Of a stretch of 64,000 nucleotides of DNA, positions 1-52,989 are shown piece by piece. The notes under the pieces are model-generated. The model had not been told where the DNA came from, searched no databases, and saw only the letters and a program-made list of their open reading frames with translations. The stretch covers positions 16,482 through 80,481 of the forward strand of contig JAKLEH010000001.1 in the NCBI GenBank assembly GCA_022703155.1, read 5' to 3'. Origin of the DNA: Patescibacteria group bacterium (GTDB lineage: Bacteria; Patescibacteriota; Patescibacteriia; 2-12-FULL-60-25). The stretch's first letter is position 1, and each line of letters opens with the position of its first letter. Made by a program: the position numbers and the translations under genes.

Positions 1-3000
1 GCCGCTACCATGGGCGGCCGCGGACGATACCAGCTGATGTATTCGCCGTTGCTCAGATTGGTGTTGCCGCTGGAAATGTATCCGAACGCGTCCAAACCTC
101 CGGAAACGTCGGTGGCCGTGGGCGCCCAAGCCGGCTGCGGCGACTGTTCGCTTAAGACCGAAATATTGTTGACCGAAACCGGATTGGTCAGATCGTAGGA
201 CACCAAACAATGGTCACGACCGTCCTTGCACACGTCGTTGCGTGACATGTAACCAGGCGAATGAGTGCAAGCATTGTTGTCTTGGTCGGGATCTATGGTC
301 TCAGCGTTGCCGTAGGCTTGGTAACATTCGGGAATCGCGTCCACGCCCGGTTTGAGTTTATCCAGCTCGTTAATGTAAATCTGTGTCACGCCGTAACTCA
401 TCGGCATATCGATTTTATTGCCTTGAGCGTCCTTGCCCTTGACCGTTAGCGCCTTATTAGACTTGTCGACGACATTCTTGCCCACATAATAAGACATCGC
501 ATTCTTATAATCATCGCCCGGATAGGTCGCGGGTTTGCAGTACTGCCAATCTGGTCGCGTGTCGCCCTCGTCGAAGTTATCCGGGTTGTCAGAAGGTTGC
601 ATGCGCGGGTTGCACTGGCCTTCGCCTTCCACGATTTGGCCGTCCAAAGAACCGCCGACGCAACGGCACGGGGAGCGCGACACCTTCATGTTCGGATCCG
701 ACGGCCCCGGCAACTCCATGCTGCCGCCCGTACCATCAGATGCGATGTACGCAGGTATCCATTCGTAATTGTCCGGACTGATCAAACCTTTTTCACCGTA
801 ATATTCATCATGCGCGGTATTCCACTTATCCCACAATTCATCCAACGGAACCCAAGGGCTCATGAATCTATACACTTGTTCGTCCTTGACGGTCGGCGAA
901 CTGCTGAAAGCCCATTTTTCATCGTACATTCTGACGTTGGCGAGTTTACCCGTAACCGTATCGCTATCCGTGCCTCCGACCGGCGGTTCGCAATGGCCCG
1001 GCACGAAAACCTCGTATGGGCGCGTCCCTACGTTTTGCGAACGGTTCGTATCCTGATTCGGCGAAGCGACCTGCATAGCACCGGGGTAAAGCTTCAACCT
1101 CTCGTCCTTGGGATCCAAGAAAACGCCCCAACCAGTTTTGTCGAAGAATTCATCCCTCATTCCAAACCTATATGCCTTGTAGAAAGCCTTGAAATCTTCA
1201 AACGTGGCATAGTTTTTAGCTTGTATGGCCTTCAAGAATTCGTCAGTCGCGGCATACAGAGCCTCGGGCACGCCATAACCCTTCCAGTAATTGCTGTATT
1301 GCACAAAGCCCCAAGGCCAATACTGACCCTTCAGATACTGATAACCGCCACTACTCAATTGCCCCAAAGGCGGATAATCGCCGCCTAAAGCCAACGGGAA
1401 AATGGCTTGGCTGTATAAGGTAGGCGCCCATGGGAATGCCTCGTTGCCCTTGACCTGACCGTTATAGTAAAACGGCGTGCCATAGAGCATTCCTTCCATG
1501 TTGACGTAACCCTTCGACAAGTCTTGAAGAAGGTAGAGATACTTGTTCGCTTGCTGATACACCGTCCATCCGTCGTAACCACTTATTGCGAAGGCATGAG
1601 AGAAAGGCATCCGCGTAAACATTTCGCCGGTCAAATCCAAAGTTTCACCCATCGACCATTGTACGCCAACTTTATAAGACACTGCGCCGCTCCATTGAAG
1701 CAACTTGCCTTTCGCCCACTGTATGTAACTGTCCGCATAACCCACATCGCCATCTCCGCTTTTGTTCCAAAACCAGATACGGGCACCTAAAGACTGCAGG
1801 GTGCGCATGAGCGGATTTATTGCAAACGGAGCTACGGCCGCCATGCGCATCATCTTTTTACCCTTAGTGGAATCGTTTGAATTATTGGTCAAATTCTCTT
1901 TGTTCTTGATTCGATTTTCTCCCACGATCTTATCGAAATTATACGCGTAAGTATTGGGGAATTGGTACGCCACCGAATTGCAGGTCTGCAGGCAATACAT
2001 AAGCGCAATCAGGTGGGCTTTTTTAATGGCGTAAGCCATGTCATTATCGTCATTTGGATCCTCATTGTCCCCATCGTCATCCTTAACGAGATAATCCGCA
2101 TTATATCCGTGCTGAGCCAACGTCCTGCATATCCTGTAATAGGGTTTTATCGGGCAAAGGTATTCGCCCACCGTGCTGGGGTAAACCGGCGGATAATCCT
2201 TTGGACTGTCGAGTGTTTGCAGGATGCCATTGTTGTCGTCGTCGTGTTTCGGCTCACCAAAACCGCATTCTTTACACTCAAACTCGGTCCCATCCCCGCA
2301 ATCCGAAGCGTCGCATTGCTTAAGCACCCCAAATTTTTGCGCTTCGTTAAAATGCCACACCTTATCGTATGCAGATGTGTCCCCCCCCTTTGTAACGTCG
2401 TCACCGCCCCTGTAATTCACATCCACAAAACCCGCGTCATGACCGGCGACCGACAACACGCTGGCTTTAGAGTACTCCTCCGGCACTTCGGTCATGGCTC
2501 CGCCGTTTCCGTCGTCGAACAACGGCGTGGGCAGGTTACGGTCTTTCAACTTGACCTCGGAAAACGCGGGTTTTGCTCCGTTGAATAGGTCCAGATTGGA
2601 TACGATGAAATTGGGTTCGGCCGAACCGAATCTGGTGCCTACCCCCTTGCCCTTGTCGAATGCCCCCCAATATTCATATTCGGTGAAGCGACAATCCGAA
2701 TCCGTCTTGCAGCGTGACAAGGGATTGAAACCGAAACAATAACCCGTATCTTTAAAGCCTTCCTGAAAACGGTAAGGATCGAGTTCCTGATAGGTTTCCC
2801 TTCCCGTACCGCCTATGGTGCAAAATCCGCAACTGGGCACGCTATACCACACGCTTTGGCCGGTTTGCATGTTTGGCTTCGCCACCTGACGGTTGAAGGC
2901 TGGATTGTCGTATTTGTCTCCTGGCGTAATACCGCCCGTGCACGCTTCAATCTTGATAGGGCAATCCACGGATTCATCCGACTCGCCACCGCACCGAGCG

Positions 3001-6000
3001 CCAGGATTGACTACGGGTTTGCCCTGGGTGTCTTGGCAACGGAAAATCGCGGATTGTTCGACCAAACCCCTATTGAAAGGTCCAAAATTGAACGTGCCTT
3101 TGATTGGGGATTTGACGGCGTTCGGAATTTTAACATTACCTTCCGGCAAAATGATGCATTCGTTGTTGTTGGCCAGAGAATATGGAGTGCCGTTACCCTT
3201 AAATCCACCATATTGCCCCCAATAACGTCTTACCCCCTTAATGACCTGACTGCTTATCTTTACGTTTTTATTAGCCAATTCTGGAAAATCCGAAACAAGA
3301 TAGGCGTTTATCCAACTGGCTTTGTCACTCATGGGTTCGAAATTCCTGATGAAATCCGTAAAGCTAAAATCCTTTCCGCCTTCGCTGGCAGTGTTGCATA
3401 TGCCGCCGGACCCGTCTTGGCCGCCAGCTTGGACCGAGCCCCATTTGAGTGCCATGTACACCAAAGCCAAAACGGTCTGATCCTGTCTAATATAGCCGTT
3501 TGAGTCAAGATCAAAATTCAAACCATCCCGCTTTGGCTGGATGAACAAGGTATTGGGATTATTCTTGCATGCGGTGTATTTGAAATAGATACGAGGTCCA
3601 TTGTCCTGCCAGTCGTCTTCCGTCGTATAAACGCAATCGCTTAAGTGTTGGCTTGCGTTCGGTCCTGGATTATGACCTCCGGTTGACAAATCCGTCCGGA
3701 TCTGTTCAATCAACGGACTGCACAAGTCCTGGTAGTCAGAGCCTTGATTGGATTCGGAAACGCAGCTTCCAGTCAAGCCAATGTTGGCTGCGGAATTATT
3801 GGCACTGAACAACGTCAAGTAACATGCGTGGCTATTCGCGTAAGTTGTTTTGCAGACGCCCAAACCGCTCAAATCGGAAGGTGTCAAATAATAGTCCAAT
3901 TGCATTTCCGGCGAACACCGGCCATAAAGCGGCAAGGGAATGTGGGTTTTAAGTTTGGGATCGGTCTGTTGGTCTTCGGTATCGAACGGATAGGCCACTG
4001 GCCCATTATGGCAAATCGCGTCCAGATTCCTGGGCTGTTCCATCTCACCGCACCGCAAACCGCGGTTTACGCCCGAGAGCGTATTGCATCGCCAATTCTG
4101 ATTTTTGACGTCAACATCCAAATTGGGATCGCATTTGGCATAACCGGTACAAGTTTTTATAGCCTGATAATGATTGGTATATTGTTTGCCATCCGGCGGC
4201 GTGCAATTCTTGCCTTGGTTGTCTCCTCCAACGCACACCCAATCCAATTTATTAACCAAACTCGATTCCCAACGGTATATTTTATACACTTTCGCGAACA
4301 GATTGGTGAGCGGAGCCCAAGTGTTCTGCTGGGTCATGAGCAAAGGTTGGATTCCTTGTCCGGAATCCACAAAACCCGTACCGCCTTTTTGCGTGGAGAG
4401 CGGAACCGAAGCGCCCAAAACCATGGGGTCGTGTCCGATGCTGCCCGCGGCTATGGCCGAACCGAATGGCTGGTTGCGGACTCCGTAATCCATACCCAAA
4501 ATTGGCAACGCGAAGTTGCCGTTTGACCAAACGCGGTCCGCGAACGCCGCGCTCTCGCGCGTGTAGGGCGAGACAACCTGGCCAACTTGGCGGCACACGT
4601 CGGCCGTCACGATGTCCAATTGCATGTACAGCAAACCTGGATCCGTGGCCAAACCGTTTTGCGGCAAACACGTGGTGAACCAAAAACCCACGAACTGCCA
4701 GGGGCCTTTAAGCTGACGCGTAACGGCATCCTCCTCACTTAAATTATTTTCCGCGCGGTTCATGTTTTGGAACATGGCCCGGATGGCGAAATACGGCTTG
4801 TCCGATTGGCATTGCTTGGCCAAGGAATTACGACCTTTTACTTGCTTCCAGAAATTGAAATTCGTTTGACTGTCCGGGTTGGCCTGCTTGTATCTGTCGG
4901 CCCACACGAAAGCTTCCTGGCTGTTGTATTGAAAGCCGGTTTGCCAATATTTGAAATAACAATTTTGGCCAGAACCAACTTGCGGCTTTTCTTCCGGATT
5001 GTCCACGCAACCCAATCTAATGGGCTTGTTCTGCGAATCCGTCAACAAATTTTCGCTGCTTCGGTCCAACACTCCGGGGAAGGAATTTTTGAAACCGGTA
5101 TAGAAACCTTCTGACAACGAATTGATGCTGGAAAGGTAGGCTTGGCAGGTTGAGCCCAAATCCTGCTTGTCGGTTTCCTGATCGTTGCCATTCGCATCTT
5201 TCACTGTTTTCTTTTTATCTTGAACCGTAGGCAGAGACATGCCCAACCAAGCCACATTCCACTTGCAGGCCGAGCCGGCGGCATAAGGTTTGATGGAAAA
5301 TTTGAATAAACCGAACTTAAAATCGTACGAATCCTCATCGAGCTTATATCCCAAACCCGGGTTCCCTTTTTCGTCCTGTCGAATATATGGGATAAAATAT
5401 TCCATGTACGACTGACCGAATGTGCTGCCCGTTTGGATCCAACGCGCTTCGGTTTGGCTGTACAGATTTGCGTCCAATGGCCCACCGGAATCGAAAAGTT
5501 TAGCGGAAACGCCTTCGCAGATTGACGTACGACGACAAGCAAACATCATGCTTTGCGTTTTCGCGCCTACAATTTTATCCCCTTCCGAACTGTATGCCGA
5601 TGAATTGAGGATATCCGATGGGGCACGTTGGCTGAAACCGACAAAAGTGCGATCGAACTCGAAATGCCTCAAATAACCGGGCGACACGAAAAATTTGCCC
5701 AAATAATTTTGTCCTGAATTATTTTCCGTGGCTGGCGTAGGCGTAAACAACCTTTGCGAATTGGCGCCGGTCACGCAATAGAATTCGCCCGAACCTTGCG
5801 GCGGCAAATAACCGGCCGTTGGCGAATAATGCGTGGTGTCGTATTTGCCGCCCAAGACGTTAAGCGGGCTCCAGCTCAAACACGGCGCGATGGTCTGCGA
5901 AATTTCGCTGATGCGCGTTTTGTCGCGCTCCAAGCAATAGCCATAACGCCCATTCTGCACCACCACGTCCTGTAGCGCCATGCAAATGCCGCCTTTGCAG

Positions 6001-9000
6001 CCAGCGGTCGGATCGGTTGTGCCTTGGGCTTGAACCAAAACTTTGTTTTTTGAATCAACTGGAATGTAACCGCCGGGCACGCACGGCGAACCTTCGATTT
6101 CTCCGCCCACGCACACGCCTACGGACGGCGCCTTGCCGAACGCCGAATAATAACGCGGTTCACTGGCGTCATACCGCGCTTTGCGGTACGAACACGAACA
6201 ATCTTCGCCGTACACGCACGCCTTGGCGTTTTCGTAACCCGGTGCCATGGCCGTGGGCACGGGCGGTTCCACTTTGGTGTTCCACTCGGTCACGAACTCG
6301 TTGGGCACGGGCGAATCCTGTTCCGGATACAGCTGGCATTCGGGTTCGGGCATGGCGCTTTGCATGGTGGAGTTGCGCCGCGACACGTTTTGGTTTTGGA
6401 ATTCCTTGTACAACCGCTGGATGTCGCGCGAGGTATCGCCGCCGCCCGCGCCGCCCGCGGAGGCCGCCAACGATGCGGCTTCGGAAATGGGCAAATAACA
6501 GAACTTCCAATCTCCAGTCAGGTAGCCCCACCGGTTGGTGCGCCAATCCTTACACAACTTGACCGCGTCGAAAGTCGGGTCGTTTTCTTGGGTGACCAAC
6601 GGGCTCTTTACCGGCACCCGCGCCACCAAACGCTTATCCTGTTTATATACTCCGTTGTAGGCGTTCTTGAGCAAATCCGCACCTACGTTATGCGCTTCCA
6701 CGTCCGCCACTAAATAGGCGTCCGGCGCAATCAAACCCGAATAATCCATGGCCCCAAAGCCCACGCTGCGTCGGCTGTAGCTCTTTGCGTTGACGAACTG
6801 CCCGGGGAACAGGAAATTTTCCTTATCGCGATCCGTGAACTGGGCGCAATAAATGTCTTCGTTCTTGGAACCGTTCTTTTGGCACAATTGCATCTGCGAA
6901 CATTGCGTCACATATTTTTGTTGGGCCGAATCGAATACGGTCTCGCCCGTGCGGCAGCCCATCCAACGCGCGCACTCGCGCTCCAATTTGACTTTGACGA
7001 TGAGGTTCGCGTCGTTGCTGAACCGCTCTTTGTAGCACGTGCCGACCATTTGTCCGGGCGACGCGTCCGGATTGATGCCGTCCATTACGATCATCGCGCA
7101 ATTATCGTCTGACGCGCAAGACGAACCTTCCAAGCCGGAATCGGCGAGTTGCTTCTCCCACAAAACGTCGAAATGGCCGATCACGAGGGTTTTGTATATA
7201 ATGTCGCTCTCGCCTGGTTTTTGCGGACGGTATTTTTTTACGAAGTTCACGCACTTGCCCGACCCCATGCAGTACGGATTTTCCTTATCCGTGTCGCAAT
7301 TTATCGGACTTTGGGCCGCGCCTTTTTGCGCCACGACCTTTGAATAGGTGGCTTTGGACGACGCTTCGAGCGTGGATACGTTCTTGTTGTTGAACAGTAC
7401 GCAACCGGAGAGCGGGTCCACGGAACCGCCGCAGGTTTGGGTGTCGATTTGGTTGCTGTAGATCATGAAGTACGACCGGCCCGTGGGCATGGCGGGATCC
7501 GATAAATCATTGGGATCCACCAATTCCGTACATTCGCTCTGGTCGGCCGGGCACGCGCCCACCCAACCCGCGTACTGGTCCTCGCCCGTGTAATACGCGC
7601 CGTACGTATCGCCGTTCTTTTGGAAGCCCGGGTAACACGGGATGTCCGTACCTTTGCGGAACCAGCCGTTGTACGTGCCGTCCGACGGTATGCCCATGGC
7701 GTCGTTACGCTTCAGATCCTTGCCCGTCTGCCATTCGCACATGTGGTTTCCCGGGTCACGGAAGTACTCGGTCACGTTGCCGCTTTGGAAACGGTCGCAG
7801 AACAGCTCGTCCTTGCGGCAGGCCAATTTGGGGTTGCCGTTGTCGTCCATATACGCTCCCCAATCGTCCTTCATGAGCACGGTCTTGAACTGGTTGACGG
7901 TCTTTTGGTTGGCGTAAACGTCCGCGTCTTTTGGATTCACGGCATTGGTGGTGGTGGCCAAACCCAACCTGTCTTGCGCGAAAGCGGGTTGCCCGAAAGC
8001 GCGGCACATGGCTTGGCCGCTGTCGCAGCGTCCGCGGTCGTCGTCGATGGCGTAATAGTAACGGTACGCTTGGCTCACCACGTTCCAATCGCCCAAATAC
8101 TGCTCTTCGTAGGCGCGGGCGATGCCGTCCTGGCGCGTTGACGGGCCTTTGGTGCCCTTGACCGTGATGGTCTGCGGATAGGCGCTGGGCCGGTCATGCG
8201 TGTCGACGAAGGCTTTGCAACCGATGGCGTCCGTATTGCACAAATTGCCGAAATTACGCACATACACCGTATTGGAATCGCGGTCGTTATAGGCACGGCA
8301 ACCCACCATGGCGCGCGCTTGGGGTTCGCCTTCGGGGTACGTGGAATCGCACGCCACGGGAACGCTCCACAAGCCTTTGCGCACGAATTGGATGTCGTTC
8401 AATTGGTCCACGCGCAATGTGTCCAGATAGATGGCTTTACTGTTGGCCGGGGCGGTCCATTGCACCGAAGCCACGGCGCCCGTGAATCCGCATTTGCCGT
8501 TGGCCGTGCCCACCACCGTGGTGCCGTCAGAATCGTAAACCGGACGGTTTTGGCAAACCGTGTTGTCCGTACACGTGGCCGGTACGGCAGCCAAGTTATT
8601 GGTGATGAAGCCGTTATTCCACAAACTGGTCGCCTGCGTGGCGGCCAAAGCCGCTGCGTCCGCATCGCTTAATGTCGCGTTGGCGGCTTTGACTTTGGCC
8701 ACATAGCCGGCGTCGGGCGTGACCGTGAAATTGCCACAGGACTTTTGCACCTGTTGCGTGCCCTGCGTGGCCGCGCCTTTGGCGTAGAACGGGCCGAATT
8801 CGTAACGCTTCCACAACGGACTCAGGGAGAATTGACCCAAAGTCTGGCCGTCGACCACCACCGTGGCCGTGGTATTGGACGCGGCTTTGGCCCAGAAGGA
8901 CACGCGGTACAAGGTGCTGGTGCTGGGCAAAGCCAAAGCCATGTACGCGTTGATGGGGCCGGTGGCCGGCGTAGGTTCAAGCTTCATGGACTTGTCGCCC

Positions 9001-12000
9001 ACGATCACGGATTCTTTGGACAACGAAAACTTCATGGTTCCGGCCGTCACCGGGCTGAACCAACCAATGCTCGAACTGGCCGTGAACGCTTCGTTCATCA
9101 CATTGGCGGCGTTGCGGCCCGTGGGGCCCATGTAAGCGCGGCAACCGCCGGCTTCGGCCTTGCACGAGGCGCTCAAACCGGGCATGGCGTCGTACATGCA
9201 GGATTTGGTTTGGGGCACGAATTCCGTACCGCCCGTTTTGGCGCAGTCGGCCTGCGATGAATCGTCTTTGCGGAACCGCGTACACGAAACGTCAGAAGTC
9301 ACGGTCTGGGAATAATAACGGTAATAGGCCGTGCCGCGTTCGTCATAGAACTGGCGGCAATCCTGGTCCGCCCCGCTCTTCCACAACGCTTCGTCGCAAG
9401 TCGCGGGGTCTTTGATGATGCCGAGCTTGCCGCCGGTCAACACAACCTTGGGGCCGTTGCCCACGTCTTCGCGGATCAAGGCCCAAGTAACGAGTTGGTA
9501 ACCCGTGATGTCCGAACCTTCCCAAGTATAATAGGTGGTGGATTTGTCGTTGGGTTTTTGGCAATAGCGCAGGTCGTTGAAATACGAGACCTGTTCGCCC
9601 GTGCCCGTAGCCGACTCCATGCTGGTGAAGGCTTCGCAACCTACGTCTTCCATGTAGCAGGATTGGGCCAAATCCGGAATGAAGTATTCGGTGCTTTGGT
9701 CCTCTGGGTCGTCCAAACGCGGGTCCGCGTTGCGCACCAAATCGAAGGACGAGGCCATCTTTTCGTATTTGCCGTAACCCGCGCAGATGGCCGGGCACAA
9801 ATCCTTCTCCGAAAGCGTGGCCGGGATTTCCGGGGCCGAGGAATCCTCTACGTCTTTGTAACCTTGGCAACCCACGTCCAACTGGCGACAGACGCGAGCG
9901 AACCGCTTGCAGGCCGGATTGTCGGTCGCATCGTTACCCGTACATTTGTATTCGTCGGGCGCGATTTTGAGATATGTAGATTCCAAATCTTGGGCGGTCC
10001 CGTCCACGAATTGCGTGGAATACTCGCCTTCCTCCAATTGGACCGTGTCGTAAACCACCGGATTGTTGGTCGCTCCGCCCAAATCCAACATGACGAATTC
10101 CGCGTCCGGCGGGGTCACGAATTGGCAGATGAACGGGGAGAACTCGGGCGTGATTTTGATCGTGAACTTTAGGCTGTCGTCGTTCTTGTCCCAACCGTTG
10201 AGGCAGCCTTCGTATGAAGTGATCGTGTGGTCCGCATGGGTCAACAAAACGCCCGCGGGATTGGCCGGGTCCTTCTTGAAGAACTGCAATTTGACCGGCA
10301 CGTTGATGTCGGATTTGGATTTGGCGTCCAGAGTCAGCGTATAATTCCTGCCTCCGCCCACCTCGATGCGCTGGCCGTAGATTTCCGGCGGATTTCCCGG
10401 ACAGCCTGTCTGTGACGCCACAAACGACTGCAAACCGTCGACCGAGGTCGAGGTCACGTGCTTGTCGTAGTTGTACTGCAAGCCGCAATTCACTTGGCTC
10501 GTCCATCCGGTCAACCCCACGTTATTGGTCACGCCATTAGCTTCCTCCGTATCGATCAATTCGAAGGAACCGTTTTGCACCAAATTCAATGCCGTTTGTC
10601 CGGGGTTGAACTTGAGCATCTTGGTACAGCCTTCGGACGAACACGTTTGGATGTTCTTGTCCCAATACACGCGCGGACCGGACGTAACCGTGCCTACCCA
10701 TAAACCGTCCGGGGATTTGGTGCTGGTCACGTAACGTTGCGTGGCGAACCACTGGCAACCGACGTTCTCGTCCGCGCAATTGCCGCGTTCGGCCGTATAA
10801 CGCAAAGCCGAAAGTTGATCGCCATTTGATTTGGTCCAAGTGCGGCACGAGGCGTATTGGGATTCGCATTCGCGGGCCGTAAAACGGTAGACAGGACGTT
10901 CGGCCAAACAATATCCGAACCCGCCCGTGCATTCGCCTTTTTGGTTGGTCGAAAGGCAGCTGACCATGTCGCCGCACTCCTCCATGCGCGTGCCCAGTTC
11001 GGATGAAATGGCATCGCCATAACCCCTGGACCGGCATTGGAACTTGGGCGCGGTCAAAATCCAATTGGGATCGATCAGATGGCACCACGGGTGGTCCTTG
11101 TCTAGCTGGCCTTGGTCGTTGCAATTGTAGAAACCTCGGATAACGTCGCCTAACGTCACGTATTTGCCGTCTTTCTTGACGTTGTACGGAGAATTGGCCG
11201 CCATTTCCCAACCGACGGGCAAAATACGGGCTAAACGCATTTTCTTAAGGTTGCCGGCGCAGTAAGCCCGCGTATAACACGAGGGGTCGGTATTATTCTT
11301 GATGTCGTTTTCGGGTATAAGCTCCCATTCTGGATGCAAACCTTTAGCCGCTGGGCTAATTTTGGCGCTTTCGCTACCGATGCCAGACGCTTTGCCTACG
11401 GTCATGGCTCCTTCTTCGTTCAAACTCAGCGCCGTTACCAAACCCTCGTCCATGGCGCAATTCCAGCGCGTACGCGGCTCCGAACACTCGGACAATGCCG
11501 ACACCAAATCCTGTTCTTCGGTCACGCCAAAATTAGGTATCACGAAATCTCCCAAAGACTTGGCGAAATCCTGACGCTCGAATAGGTTTTGCGCATCCCC
11601 GGCCGCGTCCGCATTCTTCATGACCTCAAATTGAACTTCCGCTTGCCCCGGCGACGGTGCGACACCGACGCCGCTGGGTTTTTTGGGATCGAAAATCTTA
11701 TGCAAAATGCCCAAAGCCATGGTGTTCAAGAAAACCTTGAGCGAAATCCAACCCAATGCCTCAACGCCCGCCTGCCAAAACGTCTGCATCATGTAGGACT
11801 CCTGCTTGTCTTGTTGTTTTTGCGCCATCATGACCGGGTCCAGCTGCATCATGGAATTGTTGGCCAAAACGCTCGGATATTGCAGGGCGCCCGTAATCTT
11901 GTCCGCGATGGGCTTCATGCCTGCGGACTCTTTGCGCGCCAATTCGGCACCCGAAACCCGACCCGTACGATAATTTAAGTACGAGCTGTTGATTTGCAGG

Positions 12001-12827
12001 CCGGCTGAAAGGTCGTTGGCCGGACCGCCCTCGTAGAATTGCGGGCGTTGGATGGCCAACGCGTCGCCCGACTCCACCATGTCCGCAATGGCCTCGAAGT
12101 TGTCGGCGAGATTTGACAGCGTACACTGGCCGCGCGGGTTAAGCATGGCCAAACGTCCCATGCCCAAACTCATTTTGATGGTAAGGAGGCGCGATGGGTT
12201 GGGCCTACGACACAAGCTCAAACCTTCCAAGGGCGTACCCGCGGTCTGCTGTTGGACGAACTTATCCAAATTGTACAAAAATTCGGAACCGGCTTGGTTG
12301 GCCGTATTCTCCAACCATTTGCCGAACGGTTGGTTCCAAAACATGGGCTCTTGGCTGTCGCCGCCCGTCAAAATCAATTGCGCGGTTTCATACGCAACCT
12401 TCTGGGCGATCATGCCCAAAAAATCCAAAACGCCGCCGCCCACGGCAACCAAAATTTTGTTATACCATTTCTCGTTTATTTGCTTCTGCCGATAATACGA
12501 ATACGTGCGCGCCTGTTCATTGTAAATGTTCCATTGCAAGACGTACTTTTCCCTGCAGGCCACGGCTTCGTGCCTAAAAGTTTCACAAATGCCTGAACCG
12601 ATCGGAGGATAAGCCGATCTAGAAAGACAAGCCGCATAAGCGGTTGCGGCGTCAATACAGGTCTGGGCCATGGCATCGAATGGCAGAGTAGCCGGCTGGG
12701 TCAGCACTTGCGGCTCCGGGGGCGCCGCTTTGACGGCCGTTACGCTGACCAAAGAAGCTCCGACGGAACACAACATCCCTACGCAGAGTGCGGCTTTGGA
12801 CAAAAGGCATTTCCAATCTTTCACCAT
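1..12827 (-). CDS. Giant secreted cysteine-rich surface protein, at least 4275 codons in the window; the 5' end is complete and the 3' end lies beyond the left window edge
   Basis: In the minus frame with codon first base = 2 mod 3, ATG is at 12827 and the nearest upstream in-frame stop (TAA) is at 12893..12891. The track lists no minus ORF in this frame anywhere in 1-12827, so there is no stop before the edge. Hand translation is protein-like at every point checked: MVKDWKCLLSKAALCVGMLCSVGASLVSVTAVKA|APPEP (signal peptide), GECTGGFGYCLAERPVYRF (~10.9 kb), DGINPDASPGQMVGTCYKERF (~7.05 kb), TIDPDQDNNACTHSPGYMSRNDVCKDGRDHC (~0.27 kb), NLSNGEYISWYRPRPPMVA at base 3. Confidence 0.85.
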   Translation of the reverse strand, partial: MVKDWKCLLSKAALCVGMLCSVGASLVSVTAVKAAPPEPQVLTQPATLPFDAMAQTCIDAATAYAACLSRSAYPPIGSGICETFRHEAVACREKYVLQWNIYNEQARTYSYYRQKQINEKWYNKILVAVGGGVLDFLGMIAQKVAYETAQLILTGGDSQEPMFWNQPFGKWLENTANQAGSEFLYNLDKFVQQQTAGTPLEGLSLCRRPNPSRLLTIKMSLGMGRLAMLNPRGQCTLSNLADNFEAIADMVESGDALAIQRPQFYEGGPANDLSAGLQINSSYLNYRTGRVSGAELARKESAGMKPIADKITGALQYPSVLANNSMMQLDPVMMAQKQQDKQESYMMQTFWQAGVEALGWISLKVFLNTMALGILHKIFDPKKPSGVGVAPSPGQAEVQFEVMKNADAAGDAQNLFERQDFAKSLGDFVIPNFGVTEEQDLVSALSECSEPRTRWNCAMDEGLVTALSLNEEGAMTVGKASGIGSESAKISPAAKGLHPEWELIPENDIKNNTDPSCYTRAYCAGNLKKMRLARILPVGWEMAANSPYNVKKDGKYVTLGDVIRGFYNCNDQGQLDKDHPWCHLIDPNWILTAPKFQCRSRGYGDAISSELGTRMEECGDMVSCLSTNQKGECTGGFGYCLAERPVYRFTARECESQYASCRTWTKSNGDQLSALRYTAERGNCADENVGCQWFATQRYVTSTKSPDGLWVGTVTSGPRVYWDKNIQTCSSEGCTKMLKFNPGQTALNLVQNGSFELIDTEEANGVTNNVGLTGWTSQVNCGLQYNYDKHVTSTSVDGLQSFVASQTGCPGNPPEIYGQRIEVGGGRNYTLTLDAKSKSDINVPVKLQFFKKDPANPAGVLLTHADHTITSYEGCLNGWDKNDDSLKFTIKITPEFSPFICQFVTPPDAEFVMLDLGGATNNPVVYDTVQLEEGEYSTQFVDGTAQDLESTYLKIAPDEYKCTGNDATDNPACKRFARVCRQLDVGCQGYKDVEDSSAPEIPATLSEKDLCPAICAGYGKYEKMASSFDLVRNADPRLDDPEDQSTEYFIPDLAQSCYMEDVGCEAFTSMESATGTGEQVSYFNDLRYCQKPNDKSTTYYTWEGSDITGYQLVTWALIREDVGNGPKVVLTGGKLGIIKDPATCDEALWKSGADQDCRQFYDERGTAYYRYYSQTVTSDVSCTRFRKDDSSQADCAKTGGTEFVPQTKSCMYDAMPGLSASCKAEAGGCRAYMGPTGRNAANVMNEAFTASSSIGWFSPVTAGTMKFSLSKESVIVGDKSMKLEPTPATGPINAYMALALPSTSTLYRVSFWAKAASNTTATVVVDGQTLGQFSLSPLWKRYEFGPFYAKGAATQGTQQVQKSCGNFTVTPDAGYVAKVKAANATLSDADAAALAATQATSLWNNGFITNNLAAVPATCTDNTVCQNRPVYDSDGTTVVGTANGKCGFTGAVASVQWTAPANSKAIYLDTLRVDQLNDIQFVRKGLWSVPVACDSTYPEGEPQARAMVGCRAYNDRDSNTVYVRNFGNLCNTDAIGCKAFVDTHDRPSAYPQTITVKGTKGPSTRQDGIARAYEEQYLGDWNVVSQAYRYYYAIDDDRGRCDSGQAMCRAFGQPAFAQDRLGLATTTNAVNPKDADVYANQKTVNQFKTVLMKDDWGAYMDDNGNPKLACRKDELFCDRFQSGNVTEYFRDPGNHMCEWQTGKDLKRNDAMGIPSDGTYNGWFRKGTDIPCYPGFQKNGDTYGAYYTGEDQYAGWVGACPADQSECTELVDPNDLSDPAMPTGRSYFMIYSNQIDTQTCGGSVDPLSGCVLFNNKNVSTLEASSKATYSKVVAQKGAAQSPINCDTDKENPYCMGSGKCVNFVKKYRPQKPGESDIIYKTLVIGHFDVLWEKQLADSGLEGSSCASDDNCAMIVMDGINPDASPGQMVGTCYKERFSNDANLIVKVKLERECARWMGCRTGETVFDSAQQKYVTQCSQMQLCQKNGSKNEDIYCAQFTDRDKENFLFPGQFVNAKSYSRRSVGFGAMDYSGLIAPDAYLVADVEAHNVGADLLKNAYNGVYKQDKRLVARVPVKSPLVTQENDPTFDAVKLCKDWRTNRWGYLTGDWKFCYLPISEAASLAASAGGAGGGDTSRDIQRLYKEFQNQNVSRRNSTMQSAMPEPECQLYPEQDSPVPNEFVTEWNTKVEPPVPTAMAPGYENAKACVYGEDCSCSYRKARYDASEPRYYSAFGKAPSVGVCVGGEIEGSPCVPGGYIPVDSKNKVLVQAQGTTDPTAGCKGGICMALQDVVVQNGRYGYCLERDKTRISEISQTIAPCLSWSPLNVLGGKYDTTHYSPTAGYLPPQGSGEFYCVTGANSQRLFTPTPATENNSGQNYLGKFFVSPGYLRHFEFDRTFVGFSQRAPSDILNSSAYSSEGDKIVGAKTQSMMFACRRTSICEGVSAKLFDSGGPLDANLYSQTEARWIQTGSTFGQSYMEYFIPYIRQDEKGNPGLGYKLDEDSYDFKFGLFKFSIKPYAAGSACKWNVAWLGMSLPTVQDKKKTVKDANGNDQETDKQDLGSTCQAYLSSINSLSEGFYTGFKNSFPGVLDRSSENLLTDSQNKPIRLGCVDNPEEKPQVGSGQNCYFKYWQTGFQYNSQEAFVWADRYKQANPDSQTNFNFWKQVKGRNSLAKQCQSDKPYFAIRAMFQNMNRAENNLSEEDAVTRQLKGPWQFVGFWFTTCLPQNGLATDPGLLYMQLDIVTADVCRQVGQVVSPYTRESAAFADRVWSNGNFALPILGMDYGVRNQPFGSAIAAGSIGHDPMVLGASVPLSTQKGGTGFVDSGQGIQPLLMTQQNTWAPLTNLFAKVYKIYRWESSLVNKLDWVCVGGDNQGKNCTPPDGKQYTNHYQAIKTCTGYAKCDPNLDVDVKNQNWRCNTLSGVNRGLRCGEMEQPRNLDAICHNGPVAYPFDTEDQQTDPKLKTHIPLPLYGRCSPEMQLDYYLTPSDLSGLGVCKTTYANSHACYLTLFSANNSAANIGLTGSCVSESNQGSDYQDLCSPLIEQIRTDLSTGGHNPGPNASQHLSDCVYTTEDDWQDNGPRIYFKYTACKNNPNTLFIQPKRDGLNFDLDSNGYIRQDQTVLALVYMALKWGSVQAGGQDGSGGICNTASEGGKDFSFTDFIRNFEPMSDKASWINAYLVSDFPELANKNVKISSQVIKGVRRYWGQYGGFKGNGTPYSLANNNECIILPEGNVKIPNAVKSPIKGTFNFGPFNRGLVEQSAIFRCQDTQGKPVVNPGARCGGESDESVDCPIKIEACTGGITPGDKYDNPAFNRQVAKPNMQTGQSVWYSVPSCGFCTIGGTGRETYQELDPYRFQEGFKDTGYCFGFNPLSRCKTDSDCRFTEYEYWGAFDKGKGVGTRFGSAEPNFIVSNLDLFNGAKPAFSEVKLKDRNLPTPLFDDGNGGAMTEVPEEYSKASVLSVAGHDAGFVDVNYRGGDDVTKGGDTSAYDKVWHFNEAQKFGVLKQCDASDCGDGTEFECKECGFGEPKHDDDNNGILQTLDSPKDYPPVYPSTVGEYLCPIKPYYRICRTLAQHGYNADYLVKDDDGDNEDPNDDNDMAYAIKKAHLIALMYCLQTCNSVAYQFPNTYAYNFDKIVGENRIKNKENLTNNSNDSTKGKKMMRMAAVAPFAINPLMRTLQSLGARIWFWNKSGDGDVGYADSYIQWAKGKLLQWSGAVSYKVGVQWSMGETLDLTGEMFTRMPFSHAFAISGYDGWTVYQQANKYLYLLQDLSKGYVNMEGMLYGTPFYYNGQVKGNEAFPWAPTLYSQAIFPLALGGDYPPLGQLSSGGYQYLKGQYWPWGFVQYSNYWKGYGVPEALYAATDEFLKAIQAKNYATFEDFKAFYKAYRFGMRDEFFDKTGWGVFLDPKDERLKLYPGAMQVASPNQDTNRSQNVGTRPYEVFVPGHCEPPVGGTDSDTVTGKLANVRMYDEKWAFSSSPTVKDEQVYRFMSPWVPLDELWDKWNTAHDEYYGEKGLISPDNYEWIPAYIASDGTGGSMELPGPSDPNMKVSRSPCRCVGGSLDGQIVEGEGQCNPRMQPSDNPDNFDEGDTRPDWQYCKPATYPGDDYKNAMSYYVGKNVVDKSNKALTVKGKDAQGNKIDMPMSYGVTQIYINELDKLKPGVDAIPECYQAYGNAETIDPDQDNNACTHSPGYMSRNDVCKDGRDHCLVSYDLTNPVSVNNISVLSEQSPQPAWAPTATDVSGGLDAFGYISSGNTNLSNGEYISWYRPRPPMVA

Positions 12828-12829
12828 AT

Positions 12830-13615
12830 TTAAAATTGGTTGGCGCCGGCTTGTCCGGCTGTAGTACTGGCGGCTGTCCCGGTCCCGCCCTTATTCTTAA
12901 GCGCTTCGGCCGTATTTTTTTGCTGCTCCTCCGTTTCATTTATGGCCTGGTCCACCAGTTGCATCAATTGCTCATCTGTCAGTTTGTCCAAATCTTCTTG
13001 GGTGACTTTGCCTGAATCGATCAAAGCTTTACGCAGCACGGCCGGATCCTTAGGCACCTGGGAACGTAAATCCATATTCGCGCCCGCTTGCTCGGCGCCC
13101 GCCTTGAGCTGTTCGTTGTTGGTCAGATAAGCGTTCAAGTCCTGGGCTGTATTTTGTTGGTTGATCAAGTCCGTGTACGGCAAAGAGGTGGTCGCAAAAT
13201 CGAACCGCATGGGATTGGGCGTACATTTTTCTCCGTGTTTGCACCACGGGTTTTCACCCAAAGCGATTTTGACGTTATCCGGAACTTCGTCGCCGGCCGT
13301 ACTCCACAAGTATGGCGACGTTTTGTAGGTGTTGAGCTCTACCCAATCGGAAATCCCATCACCGTCCGTATCCGTACGTTTTTCGTATTCCTCTTGCACT
13401 TTAGTCGGGTCCTGAAGCAATTCCTTGTTCTTTATCAAATCCGCGACCTTGCCCTTGAAGGGCGCGTTGATGCCGTCCATGACGCTGGCGCCGGTCATGA
13501 ACAACAAAAATACTGCACCTACTACAAAAGCAATAAATGCGATTTTTTGGTTGCGTTTCAATTGTGTCCAAGCCCACCCTTCTGTCCCATTTGAAATGGG
13601 TTTGTCCTCCTGCAT
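12830..13615 (-). CDS. Membrane-anchored protein with a thrombospondin type-3-like Ca-binding repeat
   Basis: Track ORF of 261 aa. It has an N-terminal TM helix (IAFIAFVVGAVFLLFMTGASV), a DTDGDGISDWVE motif and a Q/E-rich tail. Its stop (12832..12830) is 2 nt from the ATG of the giant ORF, so the two are probably co-transcribed. Confidence 0.75.
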   Translation of the reverse strand: MQEDKPISNGTEGWAWTQLKRNQKIAFIAFVVGAVFLLFMTGASVMDGINAPFKGKVADLIKNKELLQDPTKVQEEYEKRTDTDGDGISDWVELNTYKTSPYLWSTAGDEVPDNVKIALGENPWCKHGEKCTPNPMRFDFATTSLPYTDLINQQNTAQDLNAYLTNNEQLKAGAEQAGANMDLRSQVPKDPAVLRKALIDSGKVTQEDLDKLTDEQLMQLVDQAINETEEQQKNTAEALKNKGGTGTAASTTAGQAGANQF

Positions 13616-13643: not shown

Positions 13644-13667
13644 CAAAAAATCGGCCCTCGGCCGATT
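13644..13667 (-). terminator. Rho-independent terminator downstream of hsp20
   Basis: The minus strand reads AATCGGCC-GAG-GGCCGATT followed by a T6 run, about 40 nt after the hsp20 stop. Confidence 0.55.
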
Positions 13668-13683
13668 GTGGATATATAACCGC

Positions 13684-13712
13684 GTAGAGACGCCATCCGA
13701 TGGCGTCTCTAC
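13684..13712. repeat. Perfect 13-bp-arm palindrome GTAGAGACGCCAT-ccg-ATGGCGTCTCTAC overlapping the hsp20 stop
   Basis: Read directly from the sequence. It belongs to an ATGGCGTC/GACGCCAT palindrome family that also occurs at 14096, 14147 and 16804. Confidence 0.8.
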
Positions 13713-14095
13713 GCCCATTTGACCTTCACGCTCTTCCCGTCCTTGCGGATGGGTATTTTTACCTCCAAAACGCCATTCTGCAGCTGGGCTTGGGCAGCAT
13801 CCGTGGCCACGTGGTAAGGCAAGACCACGGACCGGCTGAACGAACCCCAATAACACTCGCGGTAATACCAATCCTTGTCTTGGTCTTCCTTGCTTTCCGA
13901 ACGCTGTCCCCGAATCGTCAGCAAATCCCCGTGGATGGCCACGTCCAAATCGTCGGGTTTGACCCCGGCAACCAACGAACGCACCACCAACATGTCGCCT
14001 TCGCGGAATACGTCCACGGACAATTGGCCTTCGTCCAAATTGGCCAACCAGTCGTTGTTCACGGGCATGTTCATACGCCACGCATTATAACACAA
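13709..14095 (-). CDS. hsp20: Hsp20/alpha-crystallin family small heat-shock protein
   Basis: Alpha-crystallin domain pattern: LSVDVFREGDMLVVRSLVAGVKPDDLDVAIHGDLLTIRGQR...GSFSRSVVLPYHV...LQNGVLEVKIP. The true start is probably ATG 14074 or 14068 (MNMPVNNDW), because a minus-strand TATAAT (14089..14084) lies inside the longest ORF. Confidence 0.9.
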   Translation of the reverse strand: MCYNAWRMNMPVNNDWLANLDEGQLSVDVFREGDMLVVRSLVAGVKPDDLDVAIHGDLLTIRGQRSESKEDQDKDWYYRECYWGSFSRSVVLPYHVATDAAQAQLQNGVLEVKIPIRKDGKSVKVKWA

Positions 14096-45618: not shown

Positions 45619-48066
45619 TCACGGCAAAGCCGGGACGTAAGCGTTGAAATACGGATGGTCGGCCGCGCCGCACCACACGCCATTGTGGTTGGGGTCGGGC
45701 AGGCCGTTGTCGTGGAGCTGGAACGGAAACGGTTGGCCGTTCACGAACAATTTAACCGTGCCCAAGATGGCCATGCCCGTGCCGTTCATGGTTTGGGCGG
45801 TCGCGGCCGGAATGCACGGCGCGGGCGCCAAACCCGACGTGTCGCCCCAATAACGGTTGGCTCCAAGCGAGATTTGGAACTCCAGCTCTGCCGCGTGCGG
45901 CGCGTGGAATTCGCACACGATGTCTTTGGCCGACATGGCCAGGCATCCTGCGAACATGGACCAAGCGTGGCCGGTAAACCAACCGTCCACGCGTTTGGGC
46001 AGGGTCGCGAAGTCGTCCGTGCCGTAATACTCGATGCGGACCAGGTCGTCGCCATTCGTGTCGCCGGCATCCGGGCTCTCGTCCGAGCCGGACGATCCAC
46101 CGGACCCGCCTGCTGCAGGGGCGCCTGACGAACCTCCGGTGCCCGTCGCGCAATCCCAACAGTCGGACATGACGCCCTGGTTGGTGCAGGCCTGCTTGCC
46201 CATGGCTCCGCCCGGACAACACGGAAGGTCCACGATTTGGCCGGCATGGTACGGACCGCAAGTCGCCTGCGGCGAACCGCCGGACCCTCCGGTCGACGAC
46301 GAAGCGCCCGAACCTCCAGCACCCGAATCGGCGGACGTGCCGCCTGCGCCAGACGCGCACCCGTAACAGTCAGAGAACACGCCGTTGGCTTGGCAAACTT
46401 GATTGCCCGTCGAAAGGTCGGGACAACAAGGCGTCTGGATGACGTCGCCCACTGCGTACGTGCCGCACATCTTCGGCTCTCCTCCTCCCCCACCTTGGCA
46501 CACGCACGCGCCATAAGCTTTGCCCGCCGCATCACACGACTGCGTTCCCGGTTTGTTGCCCACGCAGCCGCACGGCACCGTCGTACCCGGCGTGCAAACT
46601 TGATTTTGCCCGTTGGCCGAACATTCGACCGTATCGGCCAAGGTGATCAGTTCGTCGCTGCGCGGGCCGGCCACCGCATCCAACGTGGACGCTTCGATGC
46701 CGTAGATGCACGCGGGGTCGTAGCCCAATTGCGTGAACACGTCCCAATTGAACAACGGACGCCGCACGCCGTGCTGGTCCGCGACCGCGACTTCGCTTTG
46801 GCCGTTGCCTTTGGCCAACGCCCCGGGCATGAAACCGACCATGCCTTCGTCGGATAAAAATCCGAACGTGGCGGACTTTTCCGACAACGCACGATGCTCG
46901 ATGTCCGTATCCGCGAATCCCCATGACAGGAACGAATCGTACGAAAGGAACGTACGGTACGCGGTCGGCGCGTTCGCGGGATACATCTGATACACCTGCG
47001 GTTCGCCGTCGAACTTCACGGCCTTGGAATCCAAGTAGCGCGTGAACGCGTGGGCCGACTTCTGCCAGTAGCAGGCGATTTCTTCGTCCGTGGCCACGAC
47101 CGCGCATTTTTTGGGCAAGGTCTTGGCCGCGGTGACGTTGACGACCGCGTCGTCCTCCACCACCAGCCACAGCGTGCCGTCGCCCTGTCGCGCGAGCAGC
47201 GTGCCGAGCGGATGGCGGTTTGTTTTGAGCGGCATGGCCTGGTTGCCCGGGTCGGTTTGCGATGCTTCGCCAAACGCCGCGATGAGCGCGGGGATGAACA
47301 CGGCCGGGTCGGCGTAATATTTTTTGTACGCGCCTTCGCCCGCCGTGTCGTAGCCGCGGAACCACGCGCTGTCGTCGTTTTGCGCCTGGGCGGCGCCCTG
47401 CAAACGGATGCCGCTATGCAGATGTTCGGGGCCGTCGCCGTTCTTGGCGTCGCTTTGCACGAAGCCTATCACGTCGTCCGGTCCGACCGTGTCCCCGACT
47501 TGCCACGGAAGCTTGTTTTGTCCGTTCCCGAGCTCGCTATCGCGCAAATGGCCGTAAATGGATAGGAAACGCGAGACGTTGACCTTTTGCCCGTCGCCGT
47601 TCACCGCCGCAAGCGGCGCGGCGAGCGCGTGCTCCACCACGGCCACGAGCGTGCCGTAACCGTTGGCCGGTCCGTAAAAGCGGAGCGTGCCACAAGCGAT
47701 GGGGTGGATGGCCATGCCTTCCGCGTACGCAACGTCGCGCCCCAAATGTTTGACGTTCTGGTAAACGTCCAAAAATCCGCGGTGCCCGTAGAGCAGATGC
47801 GCGTCGGAAAAATCCGCAGCCGTGGTCGGATAGCGCGCGGCCGAAACCGTACACGCCACCGGATCGTCGTGCACCACGGGTTGGATGTAGCGCGCGGATT
47901 GATCGTCGACCACGCCTTTGGCGCAACCCAAGACCAAACCGCAAACGGCCAAAACCGCGATGCCAATCAATAAAAACACGAAAGCGTTCAGATCCGAACG
48001 CGTTTTGCCGCCGATTCGCACATATTCTATTTTCGAAAGATCCCGCCGTCGCATGTCATCCTCCAC
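45619..48066 (-). CDS. Secreted/membrane-anchored M23 (LytM) peptidase-domain protein with duplicated Cys-rich modules
   Basis: 815 aa with an N-terminal TM helix. M23 motifs are HRGFLDV and GDTVGPDDVIGFV...GPEHLHSGIR. Two ~37-aa six-Cys modules follow (CGTYAVGDVIQTPCCPDLSTGNQVCQANGVFSDCYGC and CGPYHAGQIVDLPCCPGGAMGKQACTNQGVMSDCWDC), separated by G/S linkers. Confidence 0.85.
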   Translation of the reverse strand: MEDDMRRRDLSKIEYVRIGGKTRSDLNAFVFLLIGIAVLAVCGLVLGCAKGVVDDQSARYIQPVVHDDPVACTVSAARYPTTAADFSDAHLLYGHRGFLDVYQNVKHLGRDVAYAEGMAIHPIACGTLRFYGPANGYGTLVAVVEHALAAPLAAVNGDGQKVNVSRFLSIYGHLRDSELGNGQNKLPWQVGDTVGPDDVIGFVQSDAKNGDGPEHLHSGIRLQGAAQAQNDDSAWFRGYDTAGEGAYKKYYADPAVFIPALIAAFGEASQTDPGNQAMPLKTNRHPLGTLLARQGDGTLWLVVEDDAVVNVTAAKTLPKKCAVVATDEEIACYWQKSAHAFTRYLDSKAVKFDGEPQVYQMYPANAPTAYRTFLSYDSFLSWGFADTDIEHRALSEKSATFGFLSDEGMVGFMPGALAKGNGQSEVAVADQHGVRRPLFNWDVFTQLGYDPACIYGIEASTLDAVAGPRSDELITLADTVECSANGQNQVCTPGTTVPCGCVGNKPGTQSCDAAGKAYGACVCQGGGGGEPKMCGTYAVGDVIQTPCCPDLSTGNQVCQANGVFSDCYGCASGAGGTSADSGAGGSGASSSTGGSGGSPQATCGPYHAGQIVDLPCCPGGAMGKQACTNQGVMSDCWDCATGTGGSSGAPAAGGSGGSSGSDESPDAGDTNGDDLVRIEYYGTDDFATLPKRVDGWFTGHAWSMFAGCLAMSAKDIVCEFHAPHAAELEFQISLGANRYWGDTSGLAPAPCIPAATAQTMNGTGMAILGTVKLFVNGQPFPFQLHDNGLPDPNHNGVWCGAADHPYFNAYVPALP

Positions 48067-50317: not shown

Positions 50318-50436
50318 CTGCTTAAACTATACATTTATTCATCCAACTGGCAAGATGTGCATATCTATCCGCGATGTTTGCGTATAGAAGAGAGTTAGGC
50401 GAAATAGTAAAATTTATATTTTTTTAAAAGTAAAGT

Positions 50437-51123
50437 ATGAGCACAATTCAAAAATATTATGGGAAAGGTGGCACATATTTAAAAGACCACAAAGATTATT
50501 TTTCTGATCAAAATTTAAAAAGAGATTCAGAATTTATTATTCAATCACTTAAACTCACCAAACAGGAAAAGTGTTTGGAATTACAATGTGCCCACGGAAG
50601 ATTGACGGTTGAGTTAAAAACAAGAGGATATGATATTGATGGATTGGATTTTTCAACCCACATGATTGATTTGGCAAAAAAACTAGCAGAAAATAATAAA
50701 TTAAAAATTAATTTCTTTATTGAAGATCTGAATAATTTTAAATTACCTACAAAATACTCAAAAGTGTTTTTATTTTTCCCTGATTGGACAGACTTAAATT
50801 TTGAAAAAGTACTTCCGAATATCAGCAAGATCATAAAAAGAGGAGGACTTTTTCTATATGATCATGACAATCTTTTCAGGATCTGGAATTATCTTGAAAA
50901 AAATCCAAAAGAAAAAAATAAATTTATTTTTAATCCCATAGCCATGACCCTTAAAGAAAAGGAAGGTGAAATGGGTGATAGATATTATACTTATCCAGAA
51001 TTAGAAAACATTTTTAGACAGAATGGATTTAAAATTGTTGCCACTTATGGTAATTGGACAGTAGAAAATAGCGAGTATAATTACAATAGCCCAAGATTGA
51101 GAATTGTAGCTAAAAAAATATAA
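50437..51123 (+). CDS. Class I SAM-dependent methyltransferase (cassette 1)
   Basis: 228 aa with a Rossmann-type motif region: KCLELQCAHGRLTVELKTRGYDIDGLDFSTHMIDLAKK. Confidence 0.7.
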   Translation: MSTIQKYYGKGGTYLKDHKDYFSDQNLKRDSEFIIQSLKLTKQEKCLELQCAHGRLTVELKTRGYDIDGLDFSTHMIDLAKKLAENNKLKINFFIEDLNNFKLPTKYSKVFLFFPDWTDLNFEKVLPNISKIIKRGGLFLYDHDNLFRIWNYLEKNPKEKNKFIFNPIAMTLKEKEGEMGDRYYTYPELENIFRQNGFKIVATYGNWTVENSEYNYNSPRLRIVAKKI

Positions 51124-51136
51124 ATTTTACTACATC

Positions 51137-52949: not shown

Positions 52950-52989
52950 AATGAATACTTTATAAACTTTTAATTTGTAAAGGAATATT

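Follow-up and report, generated by a model that had tools for sequence, protein, structure and literature searches.

A conserved gene pair for a giant, cysteine-rich secreted protein and a small membrane partner in Patescibacteria

Introduction

Host recognition and attachment by the ultrasmall bacteria of the Candidate Phyla Radiation (CPR), or Patescibacteria, are to our knowledge largely unknown beyond type IV pili. The closest described systems include the giant proteins of the CPR predator Vampirococcus lugosii, which are 1,392-4,163 aa long and have been proposed to serve in host recognition and attachment (PMC8080830). Here we describe a gene pair in a 64,000-nt stretch of DNA (hereafter the window; GenBank assembly GCA_022703155.1, contig JAKLEH010000001.1, positions 16,482 to 80,481 of the forward strand), whose sequence places its source organism among the Patescibacteria (CPR), near 'Candidatus Uhrbacteria'. 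On the minus strand, the first 12.8 kb of the window belong to a single gene for a giant, secreted, Cys-rich protein (hereafter the giant), and a small gene directly upstream of it encodes a membrane protein (hereafter the partner).

Adhesins of the RTX/Bap type, such as LapA, SiiE and FrhA, are built from tens of tandem immunoglobulin (Ig)-like repeats, are exported by type I secretion with a C-terminal RTX signal, and are nearly free of Cys. The SPEARE-type giants of DPANN Nanohaloarchaea are archaeal proteins for which protease, adhesion and restriction-like domains have been reported. The gigantic multi-enzyme proteins of Omnitrophota are reported to be ~10-fold larger mosaics of many known enzymatic and signalling domains with transmembrane (TM) segments (West-Roberts et al. 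2023; PMC12419801). How does the present locus compare with these systems? We tentatively propose that the giant and its partner form a Sec-exported, disulfide-stapled surface complex, which is tethered by the partner and shows variable binding modules to other cells.

Results

The first 12.8 kb of the window are a real gene. An earlier sequence-only reading had described a minus-strand frame open from an ATG at 12827 to the window edge and missing from the accompanying track of open reading frames (ORFs), and had named in-frame stops and coding statistics as checks. Re-translation bears out this description: the 4,275 codons from ATG 12827 down to base 3 contain no stop, and each of the five other frames of 1-12827 contains 43-160. 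Given the local base composition, one stop per ~25 codons would be expected, and the probability of none over 4,275 codons is ~10^-75. The same reading had taken 12893 for the only in-frame stop upstream; a stop does lie at that position, 22 codons above the ATG, and it is the nearest one rather than the only one. Coding statistics also favour this frame, with GC contents at the three codon positions (GC1/GC2/GC3) of 0.51/0.44/0.66. Scored against the codon usage of the rpoB, rpoC, gyrA, SMC and FtsK genes of the same window, it reaches +0.04 bits/codon and is the sole positive frame of six, the other five lying at -0.45 to -1.29.

The gene had been suspected of being missed or mis-annotated, which turned out not to be the case. 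The Joint Genome Institute (JGI) gene call on contig Ga0116241_10000669 (74,272 bp; metagenome 3300010429) starts a full-length 4,620-aa product at the same ATG, and relatives at NCBI are called as 'hypothetical protein'. It follows from the JGI call that the window is short by just the last ~345 codons, with the stop ~1,035 nt past its left edge. The absence of the giant from the track is an edge artefact and not missing public annotation, because ORFs running off either end of the source go unlisted; tracks that drop edge-truncated ORFs conceal just such giant genes.

The giant belongs to a large family. A scan of GTDB species genomes found 14 giant loci, five of which carry complete, collinear ORFs with stops (4,160-4,310 aa), and a sixth complete orthologue has 4,400 aa. 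All named giant homologues come from Patescibacteria (CPR) metagenome-assembled genomes, including 'Candidatus Uhrbacteria' and 'Parcubacteria group'. When 50%-identity cluster representatives were searched exhaustively (HMMER) for matches to a profile of residues 1-1000, 1,263 of them matched at E<=1e-3 and 926 still did so at E<=1e-30, the majority being proteins of 2,700-4,460 aa. A secretion-type signal peptide is present in all members examined, and the family members looked up are all labelled 'hypothetical protein'. Neither Pfam nor NCBIfam has a model for this family and a literature search found no description of it, so that it appears to be undescribed.

Some entries of the family need care. 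The gene pair is carried by four third-party annotation (TPA) assemblies titled 'uncultured Gammaproteobacteria bacterium' (L005, L009, L010 and L013; CAZPAP01, CAZXFK01, CAZLVV01 and CAYOMV01), and these titles are likely a taxonomic mislabel. On a 542-kb ENA contig (L018, 8907-21743) the orthologue appears as five consecutive ORFs of 349, 1365, 1232, 62 and 1133 aa, probably owing to long-read frameshifts, and in L002 (9412-14610) the orthologous ORF stops at 1,732 aa, 27 nt short of the contig end. Assemblies often break up genes of this family, and the number of 'partial' entries is inflated as a result.

Conservation along the giant is mosaic. A local hidden Markov model (HMM) of the full-length alignment resolves an N-terminal core of ~2,200 residues common to all length classes, a lineage-specific middle, and a family-wide C-terminal module with a terminal (R)PW[VI]x[YF]xGx[IV]. 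When the window was compared with seven orthologous loci, residues 441-745 and 941-1240 were 61-68% identical, against 64-69% for SMC and 58-65% for VanW at the same loci; the block between these two core blocks was 25-34% identical. Farther along, residues 2301-2900 are 41-45% identical, and residues 2901-4275 are 26-39% identical with many indels. These comparisons portray the giant as a strongly constrained scaffold bearing fast-evolving modules. With regard to a diversity-generating retroelement, no repeat of at least 40 nt involving 1-13615 was found in the 64-kb window, where no dedicated search for a reverse transcriptase gene was made.

The fast-evolving block between the core blocks contains the sole recognisable domain of the giant, a carbohydrate-binding module (CBM)-type fold. 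Searches of Pfam, NCBIfam and PDB with the giant as a single sequence gave nothing above threshold. In relatives, the same aligned block is matched by Pfam CBM_4_9 (PF02018) in 7/11, 15/23 and 8/14 members (best E 1.2e-14), and the family profile finds CBM chains in the PDB (4d0q, E 8e-4; 1gui, E 1.4e-3). An AlphaFold2 (AF2) model of residues 96-1200 was built on a multiple sequence alignment of 42 sequences and has a mean predicted local distance difference test (pLDDT) score of 67.9, compared with 36.7 for an alignment of 4 sequences. In this model residues ~746-940 form a jelly-roll block with pLDDT 75-92. Foldseek matched this block to 2y6k (CBM4-2) with E 3.4e-7 and to CBM4/CBM16 entries with template modelling scores, normalised to the target, of 0.56-0.76; CBM22 also matched, and so did CenC-type modules of phage receptor-binding and tail-fibre proteins. 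Among the matches listed (top 50, for the multi-domain model) the CBM entries alone are credible, and CDTb and the norovirus capsid were rejected as relatives because of root-mean-square deviations of 18-26 Å. Residues ~746-940 are accordingly modelled as a CBM4/16/22-type beta-jelly-roll.

The other parts of the giant are of unfamiliar build. Residues ~36-440 have just four conserved Cys and the family motif AY(D/E)AA..I..GG.GQ.P.F; the AF2 model has long helices at ~96-440 (pLDDT 55-73), and Pfam and PDB searches with residues ~36-440 gave no match. The core block that follows contains serial C-x5/6-C pairs (NLKKMRLARILP.GWE.AA...DKDHPWCHLIDPNW...GGYGYC), its Cys are invariant over 113 long family members, and no PDB sequence relative was found for it, profile search included. 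Two further blocks are modelled with confidence, residues 436-595 (pLDDT 76-96) and 1045-1185 (pLDDT 70-92), both unmatched among the top 50 Foldseek hits listed for the multi-domain model, and profile searches with the conserved core and with the C-terminal module found nothing in PDB or Pfam. The sequence pattern of residues ~1241-1490 makes them a candidate second jelly-roll. Within this region the window's protein has an insertion of ~110 residues (~1350-1460; window ~8450-8780), which adds four Cys (1364, 1419, 1425 and 1446) and is unique to it among 11 aligned orthologues. A C-terminal 'IDWGDG...FxHxY' pattern was considered as PKD-like and found no support from Pfam or a PDB profile, and an MltA match (E=1.5) was dismissed as noise. 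The giant is also non-repetitive: self-BLASTP found no internal repeats, segment-versus-segment hhalign reached a best probability of 26% over 26 residues, and the gene contains no DNA tandem repeats.

The earlier characterisation of the product as a giant, Sec-type secreted and very Cys-rich protein lacking a recognisable catalytic domain also proved right. A basic n-region, a hydrophobic core (Kyte-Doolittle ~2.0) and V-K-A|A make up the N-terminus, the A-x-A cleavage pattern recurs at the same position in orthologues, and the whole fits a predicted Sec/signal peptidase I signal. Beyond it there is no strongly hydrophobic segment in the window's portion of the giant. Cys accounts for 139 of the 4,275 residues in the window (3.25%) and His for 0.73%. 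The orthologue alignment, at ~46% overall identity (43-53%), keeps 115 of the 139 Cys in at least 80% of its sequences, and over the 113 long family members the core Cys are conserved at 90-100%. In 24 cases two consecutive Cys are separated by five or six residues (C-x5-C or C-x6-C), and [RKEQ]-[AW]-[FY] often comes next.

The partner was rightly picked out beforehand as an adjoining membrane protein with a Ca-binding repeat, and its pairing with the giant is conserved in evolution. Its stop lies 2 nt ahead of the giant's ATG. It consists of a short cytoplasmic N-terminus, one TM helix (Kyte-Doolittle 2.5), a Ca-binding-type motif (DTDGDGISDWVE...SPYLWSTAGD) predicted to lie outside the membrane, a C-x5-C and an acidic helical tail. 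Pfam TSP3_bac (PF18884) scores 19.8 bits on it against a cut-off of 25 (E 7e-4), and precomputed matches on the partners in L020 and L025 are 'weak' or 'faint'. The acidic loop D-x-D-x-D-G-x-x-D-x-x-E is present in the window's partner as DTDGDGISDWVE and in all partners read, as DTDGDGLSDW(D/A)E or DTDLDGMNDYDE, and the partner is a putative Ca binder through this TSP3-type motif.

A partner homologue lies directly upstream of the giant in every close locus, and the pairing is kept in four more lineages (P0010, P0019, P0043 and P0126; BLASTP E 1e-11 to 3e-74; 5/5 in total), two of which do not have the VanW-HSP20 neighbourhood. Between HSP20 and the partner gene there are two terminator-like hairpins, one with a 15-bp stem (13714-13682) and one with an 8-bp stem and a T-run (13667-13649), and none lies between the partner and giant genes. 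The hairpins likely mark the upstream boundary of a partner-giant transcription unit. Conserved pairing across differing neighbourhoods, together with the lack of a hairpin between the genes, argues that the pair is a conserved functional unit. GC3 is 0.66 in the giant and 0.60 in the partner, compared with 0.72-0.83 in housekeeping genes of the same window, and drops to 0.56-0.60 in the variable C-terminal half of the giant; lower expression, different constraints or a different history may lie behind this. Directly after the giant, two loci of close relatives (L022, 23207-24712, with a 3-nt gap; L018, 21803-23227) have a gene of 474-501 aa, whose secreted, extremely Cys-rich product contains repeated C...YCN..T.EW.W..C units and is unmatched in Pfam. 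The copies share 46% identity, and in this subfamily the gene may belong to the module as a third component. The coordinates of the pair and its parts are collected in Table 1.

Table 1. Layout of the giant-partner locus in window coordinates.
Feature	Coordinates	Strand	Basis
Giant secreted Cys-rich protein, 5' 4,275 of 4,620 codons	1..12827	-	Open frame, coding statistics, JGI call, full-length orthologues
Predicted signal peptide, residues 1-34, MVKDWK...SVTAVKA|APPEP	12726..12827	-	Hydrophobic core, A-x-A sites in orthologues; heuristic reading
N-terminal long-helix domain, residues ~36-440	11508..12722	-	AF2 model, 35-44% identity between species
Most conserved core block, residues 441-745	10593..11507	-	61-68% identity, invariant Cys
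Hypervariable CBM4/9/16/22-type beta-jelly-roll, residues ~746-940	10008..10592	-	Pfam, PDB profile, Foldseek
Conserved Cys-stapled scaffold, residues 941-2300	5928..10007	-	48-66% identity, Cys conservation, HMM part common to all length classes
Lineage-specific indel-rich region, residues 2301-4275	3..5927	-	Identity profile, HMM; runs into the C-terminal module past the window
Partner gene, 261 aa	12830..13615	-	Weak Pfam TSP3_bac match; upstream homologue at every locus examined
Two terminator-like hairpins between HSP20 and the partner gene	13649..13714	-	Consensus matches only

Elsewhere the window encodes rpoB, rpoC, gyrA, ClpP, DHH, RbfA, FtsJ, a short SMC (736 aa), VanW/PG_binding_4, HSP20, FtsK and ComEC. 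An 815-aa ORF (45619-48066, minus strand) that adjoins ComEC and FtsK has a weak, sub-threshold Peptidase_M23 match, and its product may be another large envelope-active protein. A low-GC island at 50300-56000 (GC 0.33-0.39 against 0.55-0.63 around it), flanked by ComEC and an MmeI-type enzyme, contains small plus-strand genes for a methyltransferase, two unknowns, DUF7000, a polysaccharide deacetylase and a DUF2268 Zn-protease-like protein. Three copies of a 46-nt repeat (AACATCGCATATCCAGAAACGTTAT...) lie within it, at 51188, 54558 and 55899, and the island looks like a horizontally acquired cassette array. The MmeI-family gene at 57977-60763 (minus strand) encodes a complete type IIL restriction-modification fusion enzyme (928 aa), in which all five Pfam domains of MmeI are present. 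Upstream of rpoB, two copies of a 43-nt element with TTGACA ... TAAAAT/TATATT (36173-36215 and 37091-37133) flank a small gene and look like paired sigma-70-type promoters. An Rfam scan of the 64 kb found no family at gathering score, and thus no tRNA, rRNA, riboswitch or leader, the regions upstream of rpoB and rpoC included.

Discussion

In the complex proposed here, Sec would export the giant and the signal peptide would be cut after residue 34. Outside the cell the protein would fold into a rigid, non-repetitive body of ~0.5 MDa, held by ~55-65 disulfide staples, most of them local and many in the form of C-x5/6-C hairpins. The partner's ectodomain would retain it at the cell surface, most plausibly through the N-terminal helical domain of the giant, and the fast-evolving CBM-type jelly-roll and the variable C-terminal third would be displayed outward. 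The displayed modules would then attach to glycans or to other ligands on the surface of another cell, which is presumed to be the host of an episymbiont. The difference in identity between the CBM block and its flanks (25-34% versus 61-68%) suggests recognition-like evolution, and the idea of adhesion or host contact, already raised in the sequence-only reading, gains some indirect support because a hypervariable CBM-type module sits in a highly conserved scaffold. Giant membrane proteins of CPR have been proposed as host-attachment factors before (PMC8080830).

Several points weigh against this proposal. On the window's own copy of the block, CBM_4_9 scores 12.9 bits (E=0.15), which is under the cut-off of 25.9. 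Pfam, NCBIfam and PDB searches gave no match for over 90% of the giant, which leaves room for an unrecognised enzymatic activity. The core is as conserved as housekeeping proteins, and this fits a structural role in the envelope equally well. No C-terminal anchoring motif was found in full-length orthologues: neither LPXTG nor a C-terminal TM helix is present in these, which end in a Gly/Ser/Gln-rich tail and '-TP', and the last 345 residues of the window's protein lie outside the window. CBM-like jelly-rolls also occur as purely structural modules. Finally, the habitats of many CPR are anoxic, and disulfides need not form outside the cell there.

A wider claim may be made with less confidence. 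It is doubtful, if conceivable, that the pair is the core of an undescribed, Patescibacteria-wide surface organelle, non-repetitive, disulfide-stapled and of ~0.5 MDa, which would have a Ca-binding anchor, serve in host recognition and contact and be built around a 2,200-residue core of folds without solved relatives.

Among the other explanations, the one that survives best takes the giant for a structural component of the CPR envelope, an S-layer-associated or wall-spanning scaffold held by the partner, whose jelly-roll binds the cell's own wall polysaccharide and which has no role in host recognition. We regard this as unlikely, though it accounts well for part of the data. The core blocks match SMC and VanW in conservation, the family is very widespread, and a rigid, disulfide-rich, non-repetitive build suits a structural element. 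The gene also lies among housekeeping genes and, in this subfamily, next to VanW/PG_binding_4, but that neighbourhood is not kept in divergent members. What weighs against it is the distribution of change: a binder of the cell's own wall is unexpected as the fastest-evolving part of the protein, and the indel-rich, lineage-specific C-terminal third resembles an exposed, diversifying surface.

A secreted effector is more improbable still. The giant would then be a lytic enzyme or toxin complex acting on the envelope of host or prey, its core an unrecognised catalytic or membrane-active domain and its CBM a targeting device. CBMs do typically accompany glycan-active enzymes, the core has invariant charged residues (N526, K529, R531, R534, E541, R614 and E643), and the N-terminal long amphipathic helices have moderately hydrophobic segments. 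For the giants of other bacteria that are ultrasmall or predatory, a role in breaking through the envelopes of prey has been proposed (PMC12419801; West-Roberts et al.). Yet no catalytic or toxin family was found in the ~50 members scanned or by profile searches, the H-x3-H of an HPWCH motif is not invariant, and in place of a variable C-terminal toxin with an immunity gene there is a C-terminal module conserved family-wide. A polymorphic toxin or contact-dependent growth inhibition (CDI) system was rejected for the same family: the variable part is internal, the C-terminal module and its terminal motif are conserved, no toxin family was detected, and the genes downstream of the giant differ between lineages, with no shared immunity-gene arrangement.

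It is very improbable that the Cys bind metals or perform redox chemistry, as in an extracellular metalloprotein or electron conduit, rather than form structural disulfides. The high Cys content and the likely anoxic life of the organism would suit such a role, as would clusters of four Cys within ~25 residues (e.g. 618/624/633/640). However, the giant contains no CxxCH and just two CxxC, His is scarce, and any CxxCH occurs in only 1/113 family members. Neighbouring Cys, moreover, disappear in pairs: among the 113 members C1601/C1608 are lost jointly in 19/24 cases and C781/C809 in 47/56. Joint loss, no CxxCH and scarce CxxC favour local structural disulfides over metal clusters, and from this pattern we infer that many such disulfides hold the giant. 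A multihaem cytochrome or Cys-ligated metalloprotein was rejected on the same motif counts and the His content of 0.73%, and the HPWCH motif (H-x3-H) was rejected as a metal site on account of its variability. That the long frame is a chance ORF, an assembly chimera or a pseudogene and not one real gene is effectively refuted, the broken orthologue of the long-read assembly L018 and the 1,732-aa one close to a contig end in L002 notwithstanding, by the chance probability of ~10^-75, by codon usage, and by collinear full-length orthologues of 4,160-4,400 aa, which come from six or more independent genomes and have their Cys and synteny conserved.

A single gene of this family takes up 1-2% of a genome of ~1 Mb. 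If the pair is indeed a recognition device, its CBM-type module and variable C-terminal third are testable candidates for determinants of host specificity, and the pair would add several thousand residues of apparently new folds. The family would justify new Pfam and NCBIfam models.

Comparison with known systems helps to place the pair. At the level of the module, residues ~746-940 of the giant share the beta-jelly-roll of CBM4, CBM9, CBM16 and CBM22 modules, and the CenC-type modules of phage receptor-binding proteins are likewise the variable part of an otherwise conserved protein. The module makes up less than 5% of the giant, however, and has neither a glycoside hydrolase nor a tail-fibre context. 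RTX/Bap-type adhesins, which serve in attachment, resemble the giant in their very large size, their extracellular location, their Ca-dependent elements and the ligand-binding modules embedded in them. Unlike them, the giant has an N-terminal Sec signal, no detectable repeats and 3.25% Cys; no Ig, cadherin or RTX Pfam domain was found in it or in scanned relatives, and neither RTX nonapeptides nor a type I secretion signal was found, the C-termini of orthologues being without RTX repeats or a Pfam hit.

The giants of other ultrasmall organisms offer closer parallels. Omnitrophota giants are also encoded by giant genes of ultrasmall or predatory uncultivated bacteria and are proposed to act on other cells, whereas the present family has no recognisable enzyme domain or internal TM segments. 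Likened by description only, the SPEARE giants are also secreted proteins of several thousand residues, belong to an obligate episymbiont and are proposed to act in host contact. The Vampirococcus giants come likewise from a CPR bacterium, are among the longest proteins of a tiny genome and have an inferred membrane or surface location; here, too, the likeness is one of description and not of homology. They carry WD40, PKD, integrin, fibronectin, DUF11 and saposin domains, whereas the present family has one CBM-type module, is non-repetitive and Cys-rich, and comes with a dedicated TM partner. What is new about this family among known giant surface proteins is the combination of a non-repetitive, Cys-stapled and nearly domain-free chain with a membrane partner of its own.

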